64,000 bases of DNA from positions 679,020 to 743,019 of the forward strand of contig CAWBGT010000027.1 in the NCBI GenBank assembly GCA_963788375.1, read 5' to 3'. Below are positions 7,400-41,100 of this stretch, piece after piece (the first letter of the stretch is position 1; every line of letters begins with the position of its first letter). This stretch comes from an uncultured Chloroflexia bacterium. Lineage in GTDB: Bacteria > Chloroflexota > Limnocylindria > Limnocylindrales > CSP1-4. The position numbers and the translations under genes were made by a program. Below the pieces are notes generated by a model. The model had not been told where the DNA came from. It was given only the letters and a program-made list of their open reading frames with translations, and ran no database searches.

Positions 7400-7624
7400 G
7401 CCTCTCCGCGGGTCGCATCGGTGGCCAACCGATTCCAGATCACCGGCGGTGCTATCGGCGGTCAGGATCGATGGCGGCGCGGTCGATCACTGGCCGGAGA
7501 ACGGGATAATCGGCCTCGCAGCACGGCCGGTGATTTGCGGGTCGATTTCGACTCTGTGTGAGCCGCGGGAGGCGGCGATACCCGCCTGATAGCACTGCGG
7601 GTGATCCGAGGGGTGCTAGCGCCT

Positions 7625-7745
7625 CGGCCGGCGCCACGCCCGAGGCTACGGCCGGCGCCACGCCGAGGCTACGGCCGGCGCCACGCCCGAGGCTACGGCC
7701 GGCGCCAGGGGCCGCCGGCGCCACGCCCGAGGCTACGGCCGGCGC
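7625..7745. repeat. Imperfect tandem repeat of a ~24 bp unit (GGCGCCACGCCCGAGGCTACGGCC), about 4-5 copies, intergenic.
   Basis: Seen directly in the sequence. It lies between the CGNR gene and the convergent LLM oxidoreductase gene. Confidence 0.7.
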
Positions 7746-7783
7746 CGCCGCCGCCGGCGCCACGGCCGGTGCCAACCCTGGAG

Positions 7784-8728
7784 CTACACCTGGCCCTTCT
7801 CGAGCAGCGGCCTGACCTCGGTGGCGAACCGGGTCATCGACTCCTCGTCGTAGTCGGCCGGCGTGCCGGCGATCAGGTGCCGGTAGCCGATCTCCAGGTA
7901 CGGGGCGATCTTCTCGGCCACGTCCTCGGGTGTTCCGACAGGCTGGTCCTCCCACGGAACGGCCACCCGGTTGCGATCGAACGCGGCCCGGTACAGGCGC
8001 TCTGCCTCCGCCCGGTCGTCGCGGATGAACACCGTGCCCACGCCCGTCGTGCGCTCGATCTCGGACGGGTCGCGACCCACGGTCTCGCAGTGCTGGAGCA
8101 GCACCTGCTCCTTGTGCCGGACGCCGGCCACGCCGCCGCCGACGTTGTTCATGTCGCCGTACTTCGCGACCAGCTTGAGCGTGACCTTCTCGCCGCCGCC
8201 GCCGATGCAGATCGGCAGGTGGGCCTGGACGGGCCCCGGCAGATTCCGGGTATCGCGGCTCACGTAGTGGGGACCGGCGGCCGTGGGCTCCGTGCCGTCG
8301 AGCATGCCGCGCATGATCGGCAGCGCCTCGCCCAGCCAGCGCAGCCGCTCCGGGAAGCCGGACCCGAAGTCGAGCCCGAAGTCCTCGTGCTCCTCCTCGA
8401 ACCACGCCCCGCCGATGCCGAGGATGGCGCGGCCGTTGCTGATGTGGTCGAGCGTGGTCGCCATCTTGGCCGTGAGCGTGGGCGCCCGGAAGGTGTTGGC
8501 ACCGACCATCAGGCCGATCCGGATCTGCTTCGTCGCCTGGGCCCAGGCCGCCAGCGTCAGCCAGCCCTCGAAGTTGGGCCCCGTCGAGTCACCGACGATC
8601 GGATAGACGTGGTCCCAGGTCCAGAGCGTGTCGTAGCCCAGCTCGTCAGCCCGAATGCCGGCCCGCAGCAGAGCGGGCCATTCGGTGTACTGGTTCCAGC
8701 AGAGTGCGCCGATCTTGACCTGGGCCAT
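7784..8728 (-). CDS. Luciferase-like monooxygenase (LLM) class F420-dependent oxidoreductase.
   Basis: 'MAQVKIGALCWNQYTEWPALLRAGIRADELGYDTLWTWDH...LIAGTPADYDEESMTRF' is a typical LLM fold sequence. ATG at 8728 is preceded by GGAGAC. Confidence 0.75.
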   Translation of the reverse strand: MAQVKIGALCWNQYTEWPALLRAGIRADELGYDTLWTWDHVYPIVGDSTGPNFEGWLTLAAWAQATKQIRIGLMVGANTFRAPTLTAKMATTLDHISNGRAILGIGGAWFEEEHEDFGLDFGSGFPERLRWLGEALPIMRGMLDGTEPTAAGPHYVSRDTRNLPGPVQAHLPICIGGGGEKVTLKLVAKYGDMNNVGGGVAGVRHKEQVLLQHCETVGRDPSEIERTTGVGTVFIRDDRAEAERLYRAAFDRNRVAVPWEDQPVGTPEDVAEKIAPYLEIGYRHLIAGTPADYDEESMTRFATEVRPLLEKGQV

Positions 8729-8897
8729 GGGGCAGTCTCCGTGACGGGCGGGTTGGGGCGCCTCCGTCAGGGTACCCGTGAACGCCTGGGCTGGGCCCGA
8801 CGCGCCCGGTTCGCGACGAGCGCGTATCCTTCGGCCTGCTCCGGCTCTCGCCGGATAGTGGGCAGCGTTCCCGCTCGTTACCGGAGGACACCACCGC

Positions 8898-9359
8898 ATG
8901 ACCAGCAGCCAGCCAGCTCGCCCGTCCCACCGCCGCCGGTCCATCGCCGCGCTCGCGCTCGCCGTTGCGGCTGTCGCGATCATCGTGTCAGCGTGCTCGT
9001 CCTCGGGCGGCCTGACCGGCAAGACCTGGCAGCTCACCGCGATCACGGAGAAGGTGCCCGCGTTCCAGGGCGTCGTCCCGGCGGCCGACCAGCCGAACTA
9101 CACGATCGCCTTCAACGACGACGGGACGGCGACCATCCAGGCCGACTGCAACAGCGTCACCGGCACCTACACCACGACCTCGGACGGGGCCATGACAATC
9201 ACGCTCGGCGCGTCGACGATGATGGCCTGCCCGGAGGGCTCGATGGCGGACCAGTACATGGCCGGCCTGTCGGCGACCAAGAGCTACGCCGTTGACGGCG
9301 ACCAGCTCACGCTGACCCTCGCCGACGAGGGCACGCTGGAGTTCGCAGCCGCGAAATAG
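8898..9359 (+). CDS. Lipoprotein with a META/HslJ-like (DUF306) domain.
   Basis: Signal peptide with lipobox 'IVSAC'. GGAGGA RBS. '...YTIAFNDDGTATIQADCNSVTGTY...DGDQLTLTLAD' resembles the META domain. Confidence 0.55.
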   Translation: MTSSQPARPSHRRRSIAALALAVAAVAIIVSACSSSGGLTGKTWQLTAITEKVPAFQGVVPAADQPNYTIAFNDDGTATIQADCNSVTGTYTTTSDGAMTITLGASTMMACPEGSMADQYMAGLSATKSYAVDGDQLTLTLADEGTLEFAAAK

Positions 9360-27589: not shown

Positions 27590-27617
27590 TTGACGGATAG
27601 AACAGACGTTCTATTAT
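27590..27617 (+). promoter_or_regulatory. SOS promoter with a LexA box (GATAGAAC-AGAC-GTTCTATT) between a -35 TTGACG and a -10 TATTAT, 11 nt upstream of the imuA' ATG (likely leaderless or short-leader mRNA).
   Basis: GAAC-N4-GTTC palindrome of the Gram-positive/actinobacterial LexA type. Nearly identical to the box upstream of dnaE2. Confidence 0.7.
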
Positions 27618-27627
27618 TGGACGTCCG

Positions 27628-28914
27628 ATGGCTCGCACATCCGACGTCTCCGAGGCTCTCGCAACGCTCCAGGCTCGCTGGGGAGCGGCTGCTCCACGAC
27701 GTGGCGGCGACATGGGGCTCGTGGTCGAGGGCGCGCTGGCCAGGGCGCCGATGCCGGAGCCGGACTCGGAGTCGGATCGGGCCCCGGATCCGCTTGCGCC
27801 AACGCCACTCATGCCGGCCATCCGGCACCGTCCGGGGGTACCGGTCCCGGACGCGGACGGACGGATCGTTTCCACGGGGTTCGCGGAGCTGGACGCCATC
27901 CTGGGCATGGGCGGGCTGCCGCGCTCGGCCACGGTCGCGCTGCGTGGGGACGCGTCGTCGGGCAGGACCACGGTCGCGCTGCGGGTGGCGGCGGAGGCGC
28001 AGGCCGGCGGGGCGATCGTCGCGTGGCTGGACCTGGCCCGCGCCTTCGACCCCGTGGAGGCCGTCGCGCGTGGCATCCGGCCGGAGTGGCTGGTGGTGCT
28101 GACGCCCGTGGACCTGGAGGAGGCGCTCGCCATGGCGGGAGCCCTGCTGGCCGCCCGGACCGTGGACCTGCTGGTGATGGACCTGCCGGACGGCCGTGCC
28201 CCGGCGCTCGCCGGGAAGCGGGTGGGGGACCGGCTGAACCGGCTTGCCGCGCTGGCGAGACGGGCCGGGACGCTGCTCGTCGTCCTGGAGCCCGCGTCCC
28301 TCGGGCGGGGCCTGGCGGCCGCCGTGGAGGCGGCGAGCGGCCTGCGCCTGGAGCTTCGCCGGTCGGGCTGGATCCGCCTGGGCCGGGACGTCGTCGGGCA
28401 GCGAAGCGCCGTGGAGGTGGCCCGCAACCGGTACGGCCCGCCCGGCCGCCGCACCGTCCTCGAGATCCTGTACGCGGAGGGCGGTCCACGGGATGCATGC
28501 CTGCTCCGCCCGGAGCTGCTGGCCGGGCTTGCCGCCCCGGTCGCGCCTCCGGGGACAAGGACTGCGGCTGGCCCGCCGGCAACCGCCGTGCCACCGGCAC
28601 TCACCGATCTGAAAGGCCCCCCGGCATCGATCGATACCCATGCGCCTGCTGCACCTGCTCTGGCCACACCTGCCCCTGCTCCTGGCGAGGACACGGATGG
28701 AGGCACCGACCCCGGGGAGCCACGGCTCCTTGTCGGACGGCACCTCCGGCTCGTGGCCGCCCGGCCCGATCGTCCTCGGCGGCCAACCCTGGATGGACGG
28801 GACCGTGGTGGACGCGGATCCCCTCGCCCGGGCCCTCGGCGTGCGCCGGGGGATCCCGCTCGGGAGCGCCCACCGGCTCGCGCCCGAGGCGACCTTCCTG
28901 GACCTCGCGCCTGA
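27628..28914 (+). CDS. imuA: ImuA' (RecA-fold SOS mutasome accessory protein) with a low-complexity C-terminal tail.
   Basis: RecA/KaiC-like core 'STGFAELDAILGMGGLPRSATVALRGDASSGRTTVALRVAAEAQAGGAIVAWLD'. LexA box upstream. imuB and dnaE2 downstream. Confidence 0.65.
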   Translation: MARTSDVSEALATLQARWGAAAPRRGGDMGLVVEGALARAPMPEPDSESDRAPDPLAPTPLMPAIRHRPGVPVPDADGRIVSTGFAELDAILGMGGLPRSATVALRGDASSGRTTVALRVAAEAQAGGAIVAWLDLARAFDPVEAVARGIRPEWLVVLTPVDLEEALAMAGALLAARTVDLLVMDLPDGRAPALAGKRVGDRLNRLAALARRAGTLLVVLEPASLGRGLAAAVEAASGLRLELRRSGWIRLGRDVVGQRSAVEVARNRYGPPGRRTVLEILYAEGGPRDACLLRPELLAGLAAPVAPPGTRTAAGPPATAVPPALTDLKGPPASIDTHAPAAPALATPAPAPGEDTDGGTDPGEPRLLVGRHLRLVAARPDRPRRPTLDGRDRGGRGSPRPGPRRAPGDPARERPPARARGDLPGPRA

Positions 28915-32353: not shown

Positions 32354-32373
32354 GATAGAACAGATGTTCTATC
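32354..32373 (+). promoter_or_regulatory. LexA box GATAGAAC-AGAT-GTTCTATC (perfect palindrome), 30 nt upstream of the dnaE2 start.
   Basis: Differs at only 2 positions from the imuA' box. Confidence 0.7.
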
Positions 32374-32403: not shown

Positions 32404-35400
32404 GTGGCCCCTCCTCCCTACGCCGAGCTGCACTGCCACAGCCACTTCTCGTTCCTGGACGGGGCGTCCGCTCCCGACGATCTCGTTGCCCAAGCCGTGG
32501 AGCTGGGGCTGGCCGGTCTCGCCATCACGGACCACCAGGGCCTGTACGGGGCCGTCCGGTTCTCCGCCGCCGCGGAGGCCGCGGGGCTGCGCCCGGTGAT
32601 CGGGATCGAGGTGGAGCTCGTCGATGCGGCGGTGCCGGACCCTGCCGGGATCGTGGTGCCGGCGAGGCGTGCATGGAAGCCGGGGCGTCGAGCGCCCGTC
32701 CAGCCCGAGGCACCCCGGGTGATCGACGGCCGTCCTGTCCGCCCTCGCCCCGAGCGCGCCCGGCTGCCGGGCCATCGGCAGGTGGTCAAGGAGGATCACC
32801 GGGGAGTCGGCGAGGCGCAGCGTGGCCCGCACCTGGTCCTGCTGGCGCGCGACGCGACGGGCTGGCGGAGCCTGTGCCGGCTGGTGTCGCGGGCGAACCT
32901 AGCCGGCACGAAGGCGGTCCCCGGGTTCAGCCAGGCTCTCCTGGCCGAGCACGCCGAGGGGCTGATCGCGCTGTCTGGCTGCCGCCACGGGGAGGTGGCG
33001 AGACGCCTTCGGGCGGGGGATCGCGAGGGGGCGCGGGCCGTGGCGGAGCGGTACGCGGTGCTGTACGGGCCGCGCGGCACGGGCGGTGGAAGGGGCACGA
33101 GCGGTGGAATGGGCGCGGCCGGGGGCGCGGCGGGGGGGCCGGCCGCCGCCGGCTTCGTCCTGGAGCTCACGCACCACCTGCTGCCCGACGACGACTGGCT
33201 CGCATCCGAGACCGCGCGCCTGGCCGAGGAGCTGGGGCTGCCGGTGGTGGTCACCAACGACGTCCACTACGCCCTCCCCGAGGGCCGCGAGCTGCAGGAC
33301 GTCCTGACCGCGATCCGGCACGGACGGTCCCTGTCGGACCTGGCGGACCTGCGCCGGCCGGACGGGGAGTCGTATATCAAGGGTGCGCCGGAGCTCCTTG
33401 CCCTGCCACCCGGGGAGCCGGCCACCGAGGCCGCCGACCCGGTGCTGGCCCGGGCATGGCGGGCAGGGATCGCGGCATCGGTCGAGATCGCCGCGGCCTG
33501 CCGGGTCGAGCTGGCGTTCGAGCGCTACCGCTTCCCGGGCTTCGCCGTACCGAAGGGGCAGACGCCGTTCAGCCACCTGTCTGAGCTGTGCTGGGAGGGC
33601 GCCCGGCGCCGGTATCACCCGCTCACGCCGGCCGTGCTCCGGCAGCTGGCCCACGAGCTGGACGTCATCGAGCGGACCGGCCTCGCGGAGTTCTTCCTCA
33701 TCTGCTGGGACCTGATGCAGTTCGCGAAGTCGCGTGGCATCCCGGCGCAGGGACGGGGGAGCGCGGCGGGTTCGATCGTGACCTACGTGCTGGGTATCGC
33801 GCGGGTGGACCCGATCCGTCACGAGCTGCTGTTCGAGCGGTTCATCAACGAGGGGCGGACGGCCTACCCGGACGTCGACATCGACTTCTCCTCCGAGCGG
33901 CGGGAGGAGGTGATCCAGTACGTCTACGAGAAGTACGGCCCCGAGCACACCGGGATGGTCTGCAACCTCGTCACGTACCGGGCCCGGTCGGCGGTCCGCG
34001 AGGTGGGGCGCGCGCTGGGGTTCCCGGGACCGCTGGTGGACCGGGTGGCGAAGGCGCTCGAGACGTACGACTCGGTGATGGTGCGGCGGGACCTGGAGGC
34101 CGAGGGCGGGTTTGGGGCGTTCTTCGCGCAGCCGGGCGAGGGCACGGGCGGGGGCACGGGCGGGGGACCCTCGGACGCCGTGCGGGGCTCGCGACGGGTC
34201 GTGGCCGAGCTGGAGGTGGCCCGCGCGGCCGCCCTGACCGGCGAGCGCGGGCTCACGGACTCGATGGGGCAGCTCAACCACGCGCGTGGCGGGCGGCTCG
34301 GGATGGACCTCGCGGCGGCCAGCGGGACCTGGGCGGGCGCTCCAGGCTCAGCACCTGCGATCCGGCCCGGTGGGCGGGCTGACGACGAGGGCGGTCCGGG
34401 TGACACCCCGGCCAGCGTCGCCTGGCTGCGGGCGGGCCGTGGGACCGGATCCAGCGTCGCCCGCATCGGGCCGGAGCCCGTGAAGGTCCCGGACCCGGCC
34501 CCGGACTCGGTCCCGGACCCGGCACGCCACGAGGGATCCGTCGCGGGCCTCTCGGACTGGGAGCGCTGGCTGGAGCTGTGCGCCCGCATCGACGGCTTCC
34601 CTCGCCACCTCTCGATCCACAGCGGCGGCATGCTGGTGACCGCAGCCCCCCTCATCGACATCGCCCCCATCGAGCGGGCGACCATGCCGGGGAGGGTCGT
34701 CGTCCAGTTCGACAAGCGCGACGTCGAGACGATGAAGCTGATCAAGCTCGACCTGCTCGGCCTCGGCATGCTCGCCGCCATCGACGAGACGGTCCAGCTC
34801 ATCGAGCACGACTGCGCCGTCTGCCTGGACCTCGACCGCCTGCCGGAAGAGGTCCCCGAGGTCTTCGCCATGCTCCAGGCGGCGGACACCGTGGGCGTGT
34901 TCCAGGTCGAGAGCCGGGCGCAGATGCAGACCCTGCCCAAGTCGCGTCCGGCCAGCCTCGACGACCTGGTGGTGGAGGTGGCGATCATCCGGCCGGGCCC
35001 GATCCAGGGGAACGCTGTCCACCCGTACCTGCGTCGCAAACAGGGCCTGGAGCCGGTCACGTACCTCCATCCCAGCCTGGAGCCGATCCTCCACGACACC
35101 CTGGGCGTGATCCTCTATCAGGAGCAGGTGATGAAGATCGCGATCGACGTCGCGGGGTTCACGCCTGCGGGCTCCGACGGGTTCCGGCGGGCGATGGGGA
35201 CGTATCGCTCCGCCGGCGAGATGGAGCGGCTCCACGTGGAGTTCGTCGAGGGTTGCCGACGCGTCCATGGGATCCCGCCCGACGACGCCGAGGAGCTGTT
35301 CCGCCGCTGTGCCGCATTCGCCTCGTTCGGGTTCGCGAAGAGTCACGCCGCGGCGTTCGCCCGGACCGCGTACGAGTCCAGCTTCCTCAAGCTGTTCTAC

Positions 35401-36531
35401 CCGGCGCAGTTCACCGTCGGGCTGGTCAATGCGCAGCCGATGGGCTTCTACCCCGTCGAGGTGCTGGTCAACGACGCGAAGCGCCACGGGGTCGCGGTCC
35501 TCCCGGTGGACGTCAACCGGAGCTCGTATCGCACGACGACCGAGTGGGTCGGCCGCCCCGGCTGGGCGCTGGCGGGGCCCGCAGGCGATGACGGCTCGTC
35601 CGACCGGGATGCCGGCGAGGCACTGCCCGACGGGTGCGGGATCGACGCCCGCCCGACCCCGGTGCGCTCGAGCGCGTGCGTGATCCCCGGCGCGGCGGCG
35701 CGGGAACGCTGGGCCGCCGAGAGCATGACCGGCTGGGGGGTCCGCATCGGGCTGCACCTGGTCAAGGGGATCGGCGAGGAGCACCAGGCGCGCCTGGACG
35801 CGGAGCTGGCTCGCGGGCCCTACACGGACCTGGCCGACTTGGTCGAGCGGACGGGCCTCGCCGAGGACGTTGTGGAGCGCCTGATCCGGGCGGGTGCACT
35901 GGATTCGCTGGGACGTCCTCGCCGGGAGCTGCTGTGGCAGCTGCGCGAGGTGGCCGGGGCGGCGAAGGGACGCGTGGACGGGAAGAGGCGGGGCCCGAGA
36001 GGGATCACGCGAGCCGCGGGCCGGCCGGTGGACCTGCGCCTGCCCGCCACGGAGGCGCCGGCGCTCCCGGCGTTCACGGAGCCAGAGCGCTTGGGAGATG
36101 CCTACGCCGTGGTGGGGCTGGACGCCCGGCGCCAGGTCGTGGCGCTGTTCAGGGGTGCGCTGGACCGGATGGGCGCCGTGCCCAACGCGGCGCTGGCGGA
36201 CCGGCGCCCGGGAAGGGTCCTTCTCGGCGGACTCGTGGTCACGCGGCAGCACCCGATGACGGCACGAGGCACCGTGTTCCTTGCGCTGGAGGACGAGACG
36301 GGCATGGTCAACGTCACGCTCTGGCCCAATACATGGCAGCGGCTTCGCTCCGTCGTCCGGCGCCACGCGCTGCTGCTGGTGGACGGGGACCTGCAACGGG
36401 AGGGCGAGGTCGTGAACGTCGTGGCGCGGGAGGTGCGACCGCTGGTCGAGGCCGCCTCGGAGGCAGGCGGGCCCTCCTCACCGGCAGGGGTCCGCCAGAT
36501 GGGCCAGGCGGGGATGCGGCGCCTCGGCTAG
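32404..36531 (+). CDS. dnaE2: Error-prone DNA polymerase III alpha-like subunit DnaE2 (ImuC), with long low-complexity insertions.
   Basis: PHP domain 'ELHCHSHFSFLDGAS'. Pol III alpha core ('IERTGLAEFFLICWDLMQFAKSRGI', 'PDVDIDF'). OB-fold C-terminus. LexA box upstream. Confidence 0.9.
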   Translation: MAPPPYAELHCHSHFSFLDGASAPDDLVAQAVELGLAGLAITDHQGLYGAVRFSAAAEAAGLRPVIGIEVELVDAAVPDPAGIVVPARRAWKPGRRAPVQPEAPRVIDGRPVRPRPERARLPGHRQVVKEDHRGVGEAQRGPHLVLLARDATGWRSLCRLVSRANLAGTKAVPGFSQALLAEHAEGLIALSGCRHGEVARRLRAGDREGARAVAERYAVLYGPRGTGGGRGTSGGMGAAGGAAGGPAAAGFVLELTHHLLPDDDWLASETARLAEELGLPVVVTNDVHYALPEGRELQDVLTAIRHGRSLSDLADLRRPDGESYIKGAPELLALPPGEPATEAADPVLARAWRAGIAASVEIAAACRVELAFERYRFPGFAVPKGQTPFSHLSELCWEGARRRYHPLTPAVLRQLAHELDVIERTGLAEFFLICWDLMQFAKSRGIPAQGRGSAAGSIVTYVLGIARVDPIRHELLFERFINEGRTAYPDVDIDFSSERREEVIQYVYEKYGPEHTGMVCNLVTYRARSAVREVGRALGFPGPLVDRVAKALETYDSVMVRRDLEAEGGFGAFFAQPGEGTGGGTGGGPSDAVRGSRRVVAELEVARAAALTGERGLTDSMGQLNHARGGRLGMDLAAASGTWAGAPGSAPAIRPGGRADDEGGPGDTPASVAWLRAGRGTGSSVARIGPEPVKVPDPAPDSVPDPARHEGSVAGLSDWERWLELCARIDGFPRHLSIHSGGMLVTAAPLIDIAPIERATMPGRVVVQFDKRDVETMKLIKLDLLGLGMLAAIDETVQLIEHDCAVCLDLDRLPEEVPEVFAMLQAADTVGVFQVESRAQMQTLPKSRPASLDDLVVEVAIIRPGPIQGNAVHPYLRRKQGLEPVTYLHPSLEPILHDTLGVILYQEQVMKIAIDVAGFTPAGSDGFRRAMGTYRSAGEMERLHVEFVEGCRRVHGIPPDDAEELFRRCAAFASFGFAKSHAAAFARTAYESSFLKLFYPAQFTVGLVNAQPMGFYPVEVLVNDAKRHGVAVLPVDVNRSSYRTTTEWVGRPGWALAGPAGDDGSSDRDAGEALPDGCGIDARPTPVRSSACVIPGAAARERWAAESMTGWGVRIGLHLVKGIGEEHQARLDAELARGPYTDLADLVERTGLAEDVVERLIRAGALDSLGRPRRELLWQLREVAGAAKGRVDGKRRGPRGITRAAGRPVDLRLPATEAPALPAFTEPERLGDAYAVVGLDARRQVVALFRGALDRMGAVPNAALADRRPGRVLLGGLVVTRQHPMTARGTVFLALEDETGMVNVTLWPNTWQRLRSVVRRHALLLVDGDLQREGEVVNVVAREVRPLVEAASEAGGPSSPAGVRQMGQAGMRRLG

Positions 36532-36995
36532 GGCCCGAACCCCACATCTCCGGCCGCTTGATGCGGCACCGGTTCAGCCAGGGCCCGAACCGCGCATCCC
36601 TTGCCGCCTGATGCGGCACCGGTTCAGCTAGGGCCCGAACCGCGCATCTCCGGCCGCTTGATGCGGCACCGGCTCAGGAGCGCATCCCTTGCCGCCTGAT
36701 GCGGCACCGGTTCAGCCAGGGCCCGAACCGCGCATCCCTTGCCGCCTGATGCGGCACCGGTTCAGCCAGGGCCCGAACCGCGCATCCCTTGCCGCCTGAT
36801 GCGGCACCGGTTCAGGAGCGTATCCCTTGGACGCCTGATGCGGCACCGGTTCAGCCAGGGCCCGAACCGCGCATCCCTTGCCGCCTGATGCGGCACCGGT
36901 TCAGGAGCGTATCCCTTGCCGCCTGATGCGGCACCGGTTCAGGAGCGCCCGAACCGCGCATCCCTTGCCGCCTGATGCGGCACCGGCTCAGGAGC
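36531..36995. repeat. Tandem array of ~11 copies of a 38-nt hairpin-containing repeat (GCGCATCCCTTGCCGCCTGATGCGGCACCGGTTCAG; stem TGCCGC/GCGGCA). Copies are joined alternately by a 12-16-nt connector (CCAGGGCCCGAACC) or a short GAGC connector.
   Basis: Seen directly in the sequence. The array starts at the dnaE2 stop codon and lies between convergent genes. Stop codons occur in all frames. Confidence 0.85.
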
Positions 36996-37118
36996 GCATC
37001 CCGCAAGCGTGGCTGGACCCGGGAAAGGGCACCTCGTGCCCGCGCTCACGCTCGCCGGTTGCCGTGCTGAGTCAGGCGCGCATCCGCGCATCAGCGGCCA
37101 CGGCCACGTCCGCGGCAT

Positions 37119-37196
37119 CAGCGGCAGCGGCCACGGCCACGTCCGCGGCCACGTCCGCGGCCACGTCCGCGGCCACGTCCGCGGCCACGGCCACGG
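37119..37196. repeat. 12-bp microsatellite (GCCACGTCCGCG) x ~5 with a GGCCAC-rich flank.
   Basis: Seen directly in the sequence. Intergenic, downstream of the minus-strand membrane-protein gene. Confidence 0.7.
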
Positions 37197-37247
37197 TCGC
37201 GGGGTCCAGCCCGTCTCGTATGCGTGCCGGACCGCCCCGCGGACCGA

Positions 37248-37994
37248 TCAGCGGACGCTCTTGGCCTTCGTCGTCTTGGACTTGCCCTGCTGGGCCTTGC
37301 CGCGCTGGCCACGGTTCGGGTTGGCGAGATCCAGGAACCGGCGATACCAGGCGGCCGCCGATGCGAACAGCATTGCGCCCACCGGCGACCAGGCCGCGTG
37401 ACCAACCAGGACGGCGTCTGCCGAGCCATCGCCCGTCAGCAGGCGACCGGCAGGCGTCTGGAGCACAACGATGGCGAGGATCGTGACGAAGATCCCGTAG
37501 ATGAATCCACCCAGCCAGCTCGCGCGCTTGGCCGCGAAACCGATCAAGAACGCTCCGATTGCCGGCGGCGGCTGCAGCGCCATCGTCCCCAGGAAGTACG
37601 GGATCGTGTTGGTCCCGACGACGGCCTCGAGCTGGGCGGTCGTCGCCGTGCCAACCGGGATCTCGGAGAGCCCGGGCGAGTAAGCGATGACGAACCACAC
37701 GGCGGCAGCAAGGGTGACGCCCATCGCCGCAAGGAAGCCCCAGTTCGTGAGCACCTTGGGCAGGGCGCGGAGGTCGCCCGGGAGATCGAGCGGCGTGACC
37801 GCCCCCCTGAACGAGCTCATGATGCCCGGGCGCGGCGCAGGGGTGGACTGGCCCGCCTTGACACTCGGCTTGCGGACCGCGGTCGCCGTCCCGTCCGCGG
37901 TGTCGTCGCCGGGCTCGGTCTCGGCCAGCACGGCCTGCTCCGCCCGGTAGCGGCGACGGGCGTCGGTGCGATCAGTGCGCTTGGCGCGGGCCAC
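37248..37994 (-). CDS. Polytopic membrane protein with a Lys-rich C-terminal tail (hypothetical).
   Basis: GTG start is preceded by AGGAGGAG. TM segments 'WGFLAAMGVTLAAAVWFVIAY', 'GAFLIGFAAKRASWLGGFIYGIFVTILAIVVL'. Tail 'NRGQRGKAQQGKSKTTKAKSVR'. Confidence 0.45.
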   Translation of the reverse strand: MARAKRTDRTDARRRYRAEQAVLAETEPGDDTADGTATAVRKPSVKAGQSTPAPRPGIMSSFRGAVTPLDLPGDLRALPKVLTNWGFLAAMGVTLAAAVWFVIAYSPGLSEIPVGTATTAQLEAVVGTNTIPYFLGTMALQPPPAIGAFLIGFAAKRASWLGGFIYGIFVTILAIVVLQTPAGRLLTGDGSADAVLVGHAAWSPVGAMLFASAAAWYRRFLDLANPNRGQRGKAQQGKSKTTKAKSVR

Positions 37995-38154
37995 GAGCTC
38001 CTCCTGTCGGAAACGGGGCCGCACGAGTTGGGCGCGGCCGCAGCATGGTACCGGCTTGCTGCCGGGATGGAGTTGAGCGGCGCGTAAGTGGCGCCGCGTA
38101 GCCTGTCGCTCGCTCTCCCGTCCCCGCCGTCGAACCCCGCCCCGGAGGTCCTCG

Positions 38155-41100
38155 ATGGCGCGTGTCCGTCTCGCGGCGTTTGCCGCCTTCCTCGTCGTCC
38201 TGCTGTTTGGCGCGGCCGCGTGGCCCTCGGCGCCCCGGGTTCGCCTGGTTCCACTGGCGCCGGTGGCCGCCGTGGGATGGCCACCGTCGGGGGGCCTCGT
38301 GGTCGCCGAGGTCGTGACGGGTGGCGCATCCGCATCGGACGAGTTCGTCGAGCTCGCCAACATCGGGCCGGGCGTCGTCGACCTCGCCGGCCTCGAGGTC
38401 GCGTACGTCACCAGCTCCGGTGCGACCGTCACGCGCAAGGCCGCGTGGACGACCACGATCGTCGTGGATCCGGGTCGTCGCGTCCTGCTCGCGAACGGCG
38501 CCGGGCTCTATGCGGCCGTTGCCGATGCCACCTACTCGGGTGGGCTCGCGGCCACGGGCGGGGCGATCGTCCTGCGGCCCACCGGCGGGACCGCCATCGA
38601 TGCCGTGGGCTGGGGTGACGCAGGCAATGCCTATGTCGAGGGAGCGCCAGCACCGGCCCCGGGTGCGGGTCAATCGATCGAGCGTGGTCATGCTGACACG
38701 AACGACAACGCGGCCGACTTCGTCATCAACGCTGCCCCGGCGGCTCAGGGGCTGTCCTGGGTCCCCACGCCGACGCCGACCACTGCTCCGACGCCCACGC
38801 CTGCCCCGACACCGACAGCGGTCCCCACGCCGACGCCCACGCCTGCCCCGACACCGACAGCGGTCCCCACGCCGACGCCGACCACTGCTCCGACGCCCAC
38901 GCCTGCCCCGACACCGACAGCGGTCCCCACGCCGACGCCGACCACTGCTCCGACGCCCACGCCTGCCCCGACACCGACAGCGGTCCCCACGCCGACGCCC
39001 ACGCCTGCCCCGACACCGACAGCGGTCCCCACGCCGACGCCCACGCCTGCCCCGACACCGACTCCAACCCCGTTGCTCCCCATCTCTGCGGCTCGTGCGC
39101 TGCCCGATGGGTCGCTCGCGCTCGTCGAGGGGATCCTCACCACGGCCCTTGGCACCATCGAGTCGGGGCACGTCGGCTTCGTGCAGGACGGAACCGGCGG
39201 TATCGCGGTCTACCTTGACTCGGCCCTCGGCGAGCCAGTCCCCGCCGGAACCCTGGTGCGCCTCGTCGGAACGCTCGACTCGCGGTACGCGCTGCGAACG
39301 ATCCGCGTCTCATCGGCCGACGTGACCGTTGTCGGCCCCGACAGCCTGCCCACGCCCGTGGCAATTCCAACCCGTGATGCTGCAGAGCAGTACGAGGGGC
39401 TCCGGATCACGCTCCGGGGCACGGTGACAGAGGCGCCATCGGCGCTGAGCGACGGCCTGGGATTGATGATCGATGACGGTTCCGGGTCCGTCCGCGTGAT
39501 CGTCGGTCCAGACGCGCTGGGCGATGTGACCCCGTCGACGGGCGCGGTAGTGACCGCAGTTGGTCCCCTCGGCCAGCGTGACAGCGGCGGGACGGGTCTC
39601 GCCGGCTACCGCCTGCACGCGACCCTGCCGGGAGAGCTCGCGGTCGATCCGCCGGCCCCAAGCCCGACGCCCAGCCCGACGGCGAGCGCATCGCCAGGCG
39701 CCAGCTCGAGCCCGACGCCCAGCCCGACGGCGAGCGCATCGCCAGGCCCCAGCTCGAGCCCGACGCCCAGCCCGACGGCGAGCGCATCGCCAGGCCCCAG
39801 CTCGAGCCCGACGCCCAGCCCGACGGCGAGCGCATCGCCGGCCCCGAGCCCCACGGCGTCGCCATCCGCCACCGACGGTCCTCCCGCCACTGCCTCTCCG
39901 AGCCCTGAGCCGTCGACGGCTCCGCTTGCGATCGGCGCTGCCCGCCGCGAGGCCGAGGGAGCGGTCGTTCTCACTCGAGGCGTCGTGATCGCCGAGGCCG
40001 GCCGCCTCGGCACGCCACCCCTGCTTGCGATCGGTGACGCGACGGGCGGGCTGCCGGTGAGGCTCACTGATGGTCAGGCGCCTCCGGCCCGCGGCACGCT
40101 CGTCGAGGTCCGCGGCAAGCTCGCAGCGCCGTACGGCCAGACCGAGCTTCGGCCGTCAACCGGCGGTCTGGTCGCACTCGGGACGGCGCCGGTTCCGGCG
40201 CCCGTCGCACTCGAAGCCCGCGCGGTCGGGGAGGCAACGGAGGGTCTGCTGGCCACGGTCAAGGGCACGATCTCGTCGGGCGCGACGAAGGCCACGAGCG
40301 GGGACCTGTCGTTCTCGATCACTGGCACCGACGGCGGCATCTTGCGGATCCATGCCGACGCCTCCGCGGGACTGGATCGGAGCATGCTCGGCAAGGGCGC
40401 CACGGTGACGCTGACCGGGATCGTGGGCCAGCGCGCCACACGGAAGGGAGCGCTCGATGGCTACCGCCTGTGGGTCCGCGACGGCGCCGACGTCGTGGCG
40501 AAGCCAGGACCGTCGTCCTCCCCCGGGCCGTCGGCGTCCCCAACGGCGTCCGCTGGGACGGTGCCGCTCCTCACCATCGCCGCAGCTCGTCTGAGGGATG
40601 GCAGGCGCGTGACGGTCGAGGGGACGGTGACGGTGGAACGCTCGCTCCTTGACTCGTCCGGCCGCCGGACCATCCTCGAGGACGGCACCGCGGCAGTCGA
40701 GCTGTACCTGGACAGGCCGGACGCTGCGATCAGGACCGGCGCCAGGGTCCGCGCCACCGGTGTGATCGGCCGTGCATGGGGCGCGCCGCGTCTGCGCGTC
40801 GATGCGATCCGCGTGCTCGGCAAGCGGGAACCTGTCGTGCACGACCTCAAGGTGGCCCCGACCGCGGCAACGGAGTGGCGCCTGATCCGCATGCGGGGGA
40901 CGCTGGCCGAAGTCCACCGGTCCGGCGACCGCTGGACGGCTGAACTCGTGACCGGTAACGGCCGCGTGCCGCTGGTGGGCCTCTCGGGCAGTGCCGTGAA
41001 GGTGGATAAGGTGATCGAGGGCCGCACGGCGACGGTGACCGGGATCGTGAAGCGGGCCTACCCCACCGCCAAGGACCAGCGCTTCGGCATCGTGCCAAGG

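Follow-up and report, generated by a model that had tools for sequence, protein, structure and literature searches.

Minisatellite, or variable-number tandem repeat (VNTR), loci consist of units of 10-100 bp and serve for multiple-locus VNTR analysis (MLVA) typing in Mycobacterium, Yersinia, Bacillus, and Wolbachia. Repetitive extragenic palindromic (REP) sequences, found in enterobacteria and pseudomonads, occur in hundreds of dispersed copies, alternate within bacterial interspersed mosaic elements (BIMEs), and are associated with RAYT transposases. Mycobacterial interspersed repetitive units (MIRUs), which Supply et al. are said to have described in 1997, reportedly occupy ~40 dispersed loci between co-directional operon genes, where their small open reading frames (ORFs) couple stop and start codons. 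Borgs, which are extrachromosomal archaeal elements, carry perfect, A-rich tandem repeats throughout their genomes (Schoelmerich et al. 2023, PMC9879509). Here we examine a tandem array at the stop codon of dnaE2, which encodes an error-prone DNA polymerase, in a 64-kb stretch of DNA (hereafter the window) from an uncultured Chloroflexia bacterium of the Limnocylindria (GenBank assembly GCA_963788375.1, contig CAWBGT010000027.1, positions 679,020 to 743,019). We conclude that the array is probably a locally born, recently expanded, lineage-specific minisatellite of the VNTR type; most likely it is not inserted, dispersed, mobile, demonstrably functional, or similar in kind to clustered regularly interspaced short palindromic repeats (CRISPR).

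Tandem Repeats Finder (TRF) delimited the array at 36530-37002, with a period of 50 nt (score 475) and super-periods of 88/89 and 138 nt (94% match). Ten copies of an invariant 13-mer, GATGCGGCACCGG, are spaced 50, 50, 38, 50, 50, 39, 50, 38, and 49 nt apart at 36560-36974, and there are none elsewhere in the 64 kb; both results bear out the location given in a preliminary description made from the sequence alone. The core was there given as 38 nt, but the string quoted measures 36 nt, 38 nt being the short period (core plus GA). At up to three mismatches this 36-nt core has seven matches, versus none in 100 shuffles. Unit boundaries were set by cutting after each YTCAG, which yields ten complete units of 38-50 nt, all head-to-tail on the plus strand, at 36528-36991: U1 (36528-36577, 50 nt), U2 (36578-36627, 50 nt), U3 (36628-36677, 50 nt), U4 (36678-36715, 38 nt), U5 (36716-36765, 50 nt), U6 (36766-36815, 50 nt), U7 (36816-36854, 39 nt), U8 (36855-36904, 50 nt), U9 (36905-36942, 38 nt), and U10 (36943-36991, 49 nt). 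The earlier count of ~11 repeats thus becomes ten complete units plus a partial copy at each end. On the left, the partial copy (36513-36531) comprises the last six dnaE2 codons and the stop and is the probable seed of the array; on the right, gagcgcatccc (36992-37002) is the start of an eleventh, short-type unit, and unique sequence follows. The array does begin at the dnaE2 stop codon, as first proposed, the TAG forming bases 2-4 of U1.

Along the array the units follow the order L L L S L L S L S H, in which L is long, S is short, and H is the 49-nt U10 with its hybrid connector. Two connector types are present, as had been described, but they do not strictly alternate. Long units start with cYAGGGCCCGAACC and short units with GA, whereas U10 starts with GAGCGCCCGAACC, a mixture of both. 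Connectors between cores are 2 or 13-14 nt long and are themselves repeated, such that the CRISPR-like regularity without unique spacers noted at the outset is genuine and the array is not a CRISPR. Mean column identity across units is 93%. U2, U5, U6, and U8 are identical to each other, and seven distinct unit types can be recognized, with common variants in a nested pattern: cTAG and ctccggccgctt are common to U1 and U3, the other long units having cCAG at the TAG position, and gagcgTatccc is common to U7 and U9. The 3' half of the unit (19 nt, TGATGCGGCACCGG.TCAG) is unchanged in all ten units, whereas the 5' half is variable. No frame stays open through the units in any of the six frames, and G+C at third codon positions (GC3) is flat at ~0.72 in all three phases across the array (window G+C, 72%), in agreement with the earlier statement that the array is non-coding in all frames.

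Several features of the left end point to a local origin. The end of dnaE2, GATGCGGCGCC...TCGGCTAG (last 18 nt plus stop), aligns in register with the 3' part of the unit, GATGCGGCACCGGTTCAGCTAG. Among 197,890 19-mers drawn at random from the window, only 71 reach this global alignment score in register (p ~3.6e-4); when placed anywhere, the similarity of the coding end to the unit is unremarkable (p ~0.11). The coding end is ancestral, since array-free orthologs finish with the same GMRRLG and stop. U1 holds the real stop codon, and U3 repeats cTAGggcccgaacc together with ctccggccgctt, the variant otherwise private to U1. Taken together, the partial copy, the stop context of U1 and U3, the identical units, and the variant common to U7 and U9 indicate local seeding followed by expansion in blocks of one to three units.

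A plausible course of events can be outlined from these features. Slipped-strand mispairing would have duplicated a short segment running from the last codons through the stop and a few dozen bases into the 3' flank, with the coding end GATGCGGCGCC..TCGGCTAG, still present as the left partial copy, as the putative seed. The duplicated copies would have lost the stop (TAG to CAG), U3 excepted. Loss of 11 nt between direct GCGC repeats (GAGCGC-CCGAACCGCGC-ATCCC) could turn long or hybrid units into 38-nt units; by our reading of the segmentation, U10 would become a short unit through this same deletion. The array would then have grown as blocks of one, two, or three units (periods of 50, 88, and 138) slipped or recombined unequally, leaving four identical units and the variants common to U1/U3 and U7/U9. 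Slippage is probably favoured by hairpins that form in single-stranded DNA at the inverted repeats TGCCGC/GCGGCA and GAACCG/CGGTTC, and such a mutational role would be the most economical one for the inverted repeat. We infer this mechanism of slippage and recombination, the order of events, and the neutrality of the array.

Orthologous loci place the array in a single lineage. The comparison set comprised ~87 loci of related Limnocylindrales-like Chloroflexota, six obtained by exact protein look-ups (DnaE2 81-86% identical) and 80 recovered by searching metagenomes with a DnaE2 C-terminal profile; named DnaE2 homologs belong to Chloroflexota or Candidatus Limnocylindrales metagenome-assembled genomes (MAGs). 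These loci keep the order of dnaE2 followed by a convergent gene of ~250 aa. At loci in which the ends of both genes could be placed, the intervening gap ranges from -4 to ~470 bp, with a few above 900 bp and many below 30 bp, versus 716 bp in the window. The unit was found in none of the ~87 loci, either by fuzzy matching or by nhmmer with core and long-unit profiles, and the DnaE2 C-terminus (GQAGMRRLG) and stop position are kept throughout. Because the orthologs are without the unit yet have the same C-terminus and stop position, the array appears to be an addition in one lineage that left the protein unchanged. The DnaE2 of the window is known from a single genome, and its closest relative (locus L004, 86% identical over the full length) is without the array. 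By eye, sequence after the stop in L005 (GACGCGGCACCCGGGCCAGCGG) is suggestive of the 3' half of the unit, and TAGGAGTGCGCC in L004 of the short connector; the unit profiles missed both resemblances and neither was used as evidence.

The status of the array as a single locus applies to the window, 87 related loci, and the public collections scanned. There are no further copies of the unit in the rest of the window and none in ~445 kb from related genomes, and no matches were obtained in JGI metagenomes, IMG/VR, or, by blastn, PLSDB plasmids and INPHARED phages. Translated in six frames, the array likewise had no match among 5.8e9 protein clusters, a weak result since it needs ORFs to have been called. 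A 22-mer matching all ten units, scanned against 185,579 species genomes, had three exact single-copy matches (in a Frankia symbiont, a Streptomyces, and an alphaproteobacterial MAG). By our own estimate, ~4 matches are expected by chance for 20 specified GC-rich bases over ~1.2e12 positions. Given single copies, unrelated contexts, and a number near this expectation, the three were dropped as relatives of the unit. The match in Streptomyces sp. NPDC057424 (L002:5937-5964) is longer than the probe, extending to 28 nt (GCCGCCTGATGCGGCACCGGTTCAGGAG) with the hairpin included, and it too is flanked by convergent genes; this single-copy match is probably due to chance. No literature combining Limnocylindria with tandem repeats was found. 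The absence of the unit elsewhere in the window and the public collections scanned favours the reading as a locus-specific VNTR, which the preliminary description had kept as its fallback.

The same searches bear on the view that the array is one clustered locus of a dispersed intergenic family of the REP/BIME or MIRU type, a view that the preliminary description had entertained as a REP-like or miniature inverted-repeat transposable element (MITE)-like origin. The position at the 3' end of a gene, between convergent genes, and the imperfect palindrome inside the unit are consistent with such a family, the two connector lengths recall BIME mosaics as we know them, and only 64 kb of the source genome have been viewed. 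However, six to eight further copies would be expected in 64 kb at a REP-like density of one per 8-10 kb and none is present; neither the ~445 kb from related genomes nor the metagenome collection contains one, and the species genomes gave only single matches at chance level. Moreover, all ten units are direct rather than alternating as in BIMEs, the left end is a partial copy of dnaE2 coding sequence, which indicates local birth and not insertion, and there is neither a GTAG-type motif nor a transposase among the genes mapped by synteny. We therefore regard membership in a dispersed family as quite improbable. An origin as a MITE was rejected: the array ends are partial copies with no terminal inverted repeats or target-site duplications, and no other insertions were found in the window or the species genomes scanned.

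The hairpin TGCCGC-CTGAT-GCGGCA, described as a 6-bp stem with a 5-nt loop, is real and is present in minimum-free-energy folds, but it is intact in only seven units; U1 and U3 retain only 5 bp of the stem, and U7 has lost it. In long units an outer GAACCG/CGGTTC stem encloses it, giving -16.8 kcal/mol. A functional array of RNA hairpins in the dnaE2 3' untranslated region (UTR), whether it terminated transcription without a U-tract, insulated the convergent genes from each other, or stabilized SOS-induced mRNA by blocking 3' exonucleases, would be compatible with a VNTR origin. The enclosing stem fits this idea, as does the location right after a stop codon between convergent genes, where such elements act, and a stretch of two adjacent units is more stable than shuffled sequence (z -2.7, plus strand only). 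This value owes in part to pairing among repeated GGGCCC segments. Otherwise, fold energies are indistinguishable from those of dinucleotide-preserving shuffles, both for single units (z -0.43 to -0.76; +0.58 for U7) and for the array as a whole (z -0.83 and -1.13 on the plus and minus strands, respectively). Across the ten units none of the six hairpin pairs shows a two-sided compensatory change; the 3' arm is constant and changes in the 5' arm break pairs, the variants in U1, U3, and U7 weakening or abolishing the stem. Neither a U-tract terminator nor a terminator-like site was found in 36000-38700, no sigma-70-like promoter was found at the array, and no Rfam family reached its gathering threshold, the best permissive match being xerDC RNA at 24.3 bits versus the 72.5 needed. 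Nothing comparable occurs in the orthologs, many of which have gaps below 30 bp, so that an insulator of this kind is not required at the locus. The inverted repeat is real and shows no sign of selected structure. The multi-hairpin insulator suggested at first is accordingly not upheld, and we consider a hairpin array of this kind unlikely; any terminator or mRNA-stabilising effect of the array would be incidental.

A further proposal was that the array offers ten binding sites for a protein, as iterons, centromere-like sites, or regulator sites do. The constancy of the 19-nt 3' half in ten units while the rest varies would fit a binding site, and the unit contains palindromic parts (ACCGGT, GGGCCC, and CGGTTC..GAACCG with GTTC/GAAC half-sites). 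The gene context, however, is silent: no replication, partition, or regulator gene lies nearby, and the neighbourhood is syntenic housekeeping as in array-free relatives. Spacings of 38 and 50 bp correspond to 3.6 and 4.8 helical turns and would place successive sites out of phase, and the motif occurs nowhere else in the window. The GTTC/GAAC half-sites were also considered as LexA boxes and were rejected, since their order and spacing are wrong relative to the genuine Cheo-type box upstream of dnaE2. These findings do not sustain the proposal, and we judge a protein-binding array very unlikely.

Least probable of all, in our view, is that the array is an artefact produced by mis-extension or collapse of a repeat in a metagenome-assembled contig. 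The source is an uncultured-organism assembly with this DnaE2 on a single 1.24-Mb contig, and assemblies are known to go wrong at tandem repeats, as the section on Borg curation relates (PMC9879509). On the other hand, seven unit types with nested variants, clean junctions, and an intact dnaE2 C-terminus and downstream gene argue against an artefact, and at most the copy number is uncertain.

Orthologous loci also carry independent duplications of their own at the same site. Three include the stop codon: GGCTCGGGTGACC x2.8 at L066:821-856, spanning the last codons and TGA; gcTGAgcgctctc x3.6 at L088:857-926, with TGA inside the unit; and cagccgcTAGgagcccgccccggggt x3 at L007:5149-5227, with TAG inside the unit. 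Two more, of 15 nt x2.5 in L052/L074 (L052:3422-3459) and 17 nt x2.9 in L026 (L026:1984-2033), start ~20 nt past the stop. All have 13-27-nt units in 2.5-3.6 copies and are unrelated to the unit in the window. With the window left out, the gaps contain ten arrays in 9.1 kb versus the 1.9 that the remainder of these loci, which is mostly coding, would predict (Poisson P ~3e-5), a tandem-repeat density ~5-fold that of the surrounding DNA; the gap of the window, too, holds a second array unrelated to the first. Because other lineages have small unrelated duplications at the dnaE2 stop, the site behaves as a duplication hotspot, and the gap between dnaE2 and the convergent gene emerges as a recurrent site of small, stop-including tandem duplications in many related lineages. 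It is conceivable, albeit improbable, that stop-containing segments were duplicated independently at this hotspot in the window, L007, L066, and L088, perhaps through template slippage provoked by SOS-induced convergent transcription or a stalling structure, and that the array was kept as a replacement for the conserved RNA-like element described next, for example as a 3'-UTR stabiliser or insulator.

Sixteen orthologous loci carry a conserved element of ~230-260 nt that occupies the gap (nhmmer E 1e-59 to 1e-22), at L006:7213-7484, L012:3401-3694, L004:14171-14401, L008:7222-7496, L005:14063-14318, and 11 more; a 17th locus, L031, matches less strongly and on the opposite strand, which extends the range of E values to 1e-11. 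RNAalifold predicts 36 pairs, 15 of which have two-sided compensatory changes, and the cores GGCCCGAGCTTCC and GGATTG are invariant. The minus strand of the element carries CCUCCUCC-type loops resembling anti-Shine-Dalgarno sequences. No Rfam family corresponds to it, the only match being a far sub-threshold 14 bits to CcsR1. We consider the element a candidate new non-coding RNA, possibly a small RNA derived from the 3' UTR of the minus-strand gene. The gap in the window (36532-37247) has no trace of it, the nhmmer profile finding nothing in 36.5-37.3 kb at E values up to 100, and the genome of the window has lost the element, a loss that makes a replacement function for the hairpin array conceivable. 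A derivation of the unit from the element was discarded: MAFFT had placed unit 1 on the core GGCCCGAGCTTCC...GGCCGCCGAC, and the negative profile search identifies this as an alignment artefact.

Some observations weigh against the array being a locally born, locus-specific minisatellite. With 64 kb viewed, a family with a MIRU-like density of one locus per 100 kb could escape notice. VNTRs are defined by copy-number polymorphism between strains and the array comes from a single genome, in a metagenome assembly in which its copy number may be wrong. The invariant 3' half, TGATGCGGCACCGG.TCAG, fits homogenisation but would equally fit selection on a binding site. Lastly, the background used for the hotspot is mostly coding and less tolerant of repeats than intergenic DNA.

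The gene upstream of the array (32404-36531, plus strand; stop TAG at 36529-36531) encodes 1375 aa with PHP, DNA_pol3_alpha, finger, HHH_6, and OB domains in Pfam. Its assignment to dnaE2 in the preliminary description is supported by NCBIfam NF004225 'error-prone DNA polymerase' (1035 bits versus a cutoff of 939). This DnaE2 is unusually long, as are its homologs (1290-1690 aa), relative to the 1047-position NCBIfam profile. It contains Gly/Ala/Pro-rich low-complexity inserts (e.g. GTGGGRGTSGGMGAAGGAAGG), the length of which is widely variable among relatives, and a stretch of ~150 residues separates its NTPase and finger domains.

A Cheo-type LexA/SOS box, GAACAGATGTTC (32358-32369, plus strand), lies 35 nt upstream of the dnaE2 start, and the window contains two exact GAAC-N4-GTTC matches versus 0.33 expected. 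We take GAACAGATGTTC to be a LexA site by analogy with the known Gram-positive-type SOS box; as context only, it indicates probable SOS regulation of dnaE2. The second box, GAACAGACGTTC (27600-27611), is near the 3' end of a minus-strand gene for a 391-aa homolog and also upstream of a plus-strand ORF starting at 27628. The two boxes suggest a putative SOS-regulated mutagenesis cluster, which would not be a contiguous imuA-imuB-dnaE2 operon because a HAD hydrolase gene and other genes intervene.

Downstream, the convergent gene (37248-37994, minus strand; stop at 37248-37250) encodes a conserved membrane-type protein of ~248 aa with no Pfam or NCBIfam match. The 251-aa protein of L004 matches window positions 37994-37251 by tblastn (83% identity, full length), and the ~250-aa gene holds the equivalent position in the orthologous loci; the placement of the array between convergent genes, as originally noted, is thus substantiated. 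Mapping the called genes of L004 onto the window revealed collinearity over 24.8-47 kb, in the order YgjP-like, two tRNAs, IMS-family (imuB/dinB-like), HAD, dnaE2, the convergent ~250-aa protein, a ~1160-aa LTD/OB protein, PNP_UDP, DUF5679, GAPDH, PGK, and enolase. Among the genes mapped by synteny there is no cas, transposase, replication, or partition gene.

Other repeats were observed in the window. A second tandem array at 37095-37196 (GGCCACGTCCGC, 12-nt period with a 6-nt sub-period, ~7.7 copies by TRF) lies in the same intergenic gap, 55 nt past the stop of the minus-strand gene; it is unrelated to the main array and occurs in none of the orthologous gaps. The LTD/OB-fold protein (~1160-1210 aa) encoded beside the convergent gene has long in-frame tandem repeats (window 38760-39062 and 39661-39845; L004:15927-16158; L005:15813-16212), comprising Pro/Thr/Asp-rich units of 42-102 nt and a 48-nt repeat x3.9 at 98% identity; repeat unit and copy number differ among relatives. 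This protein is probably extracellular and nuclease-like, repeat-containing, and rapidly evolving. A GC-rich tandem repeat at 7619-7774 (24/47-nt period, 3-5 copies, 83-92% match) lies where a long plus-strand ORF (7601-9295) begins.

The main consequence of the array is that the dnaE2 3' UTR and the convergent spacer are ~470 nt longer, with DnaE2 unchanged. It provides a clean example of a minisatellite seeded from the end of a coding sequence, the seed copy still residing in the gene. In itself the array is of low interest and little importance, although it may become a marker for strain typing if more genomes of the species appear; the stop-codon duplications and the conserved RNA-like element, which is more interesting than the array, are the leads to follow.

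Among known systems, the array is like VNTR loci in its direct 38-50-bp repeats at what is, in everything searched, one intergenic locus, high unit identity with few variants, block structure, partial copies at both ends, and presumed growth by slippage or unequal recombination. It differs from a typical VNTR in having two unit lengths (38 and 50 nt, a 12-nt difference in connector) and in overlapping the end of a coding sequence while leaving the protein unaltered. Relative to Borg repeats, it is imperfect (93%), GC-rich, and located on a bacterial chromosome, where it is one of only two such arrays seen in the non-coding DNA of the window. It shares with CRISPR arrays the regular spacing of a ~36-nt palindromic repeat, but has no unique spacers and no cas gene among those mapped within ~10 kb. 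With REP sequences and BIMEs it has in common palindromic units at gene 3' ends and discrete connector lengths, whereas their dispersed copies, alternating order, and transposases are not seen here. Like MIRUs (units of 40-100 bp), it consists of tandem intergenic units that overlap an upstream stop codon in a high-GC bacterium; unlike MIRUs, it is a single locus in everything searched, has convergent flanking genes, and contains no ORF.

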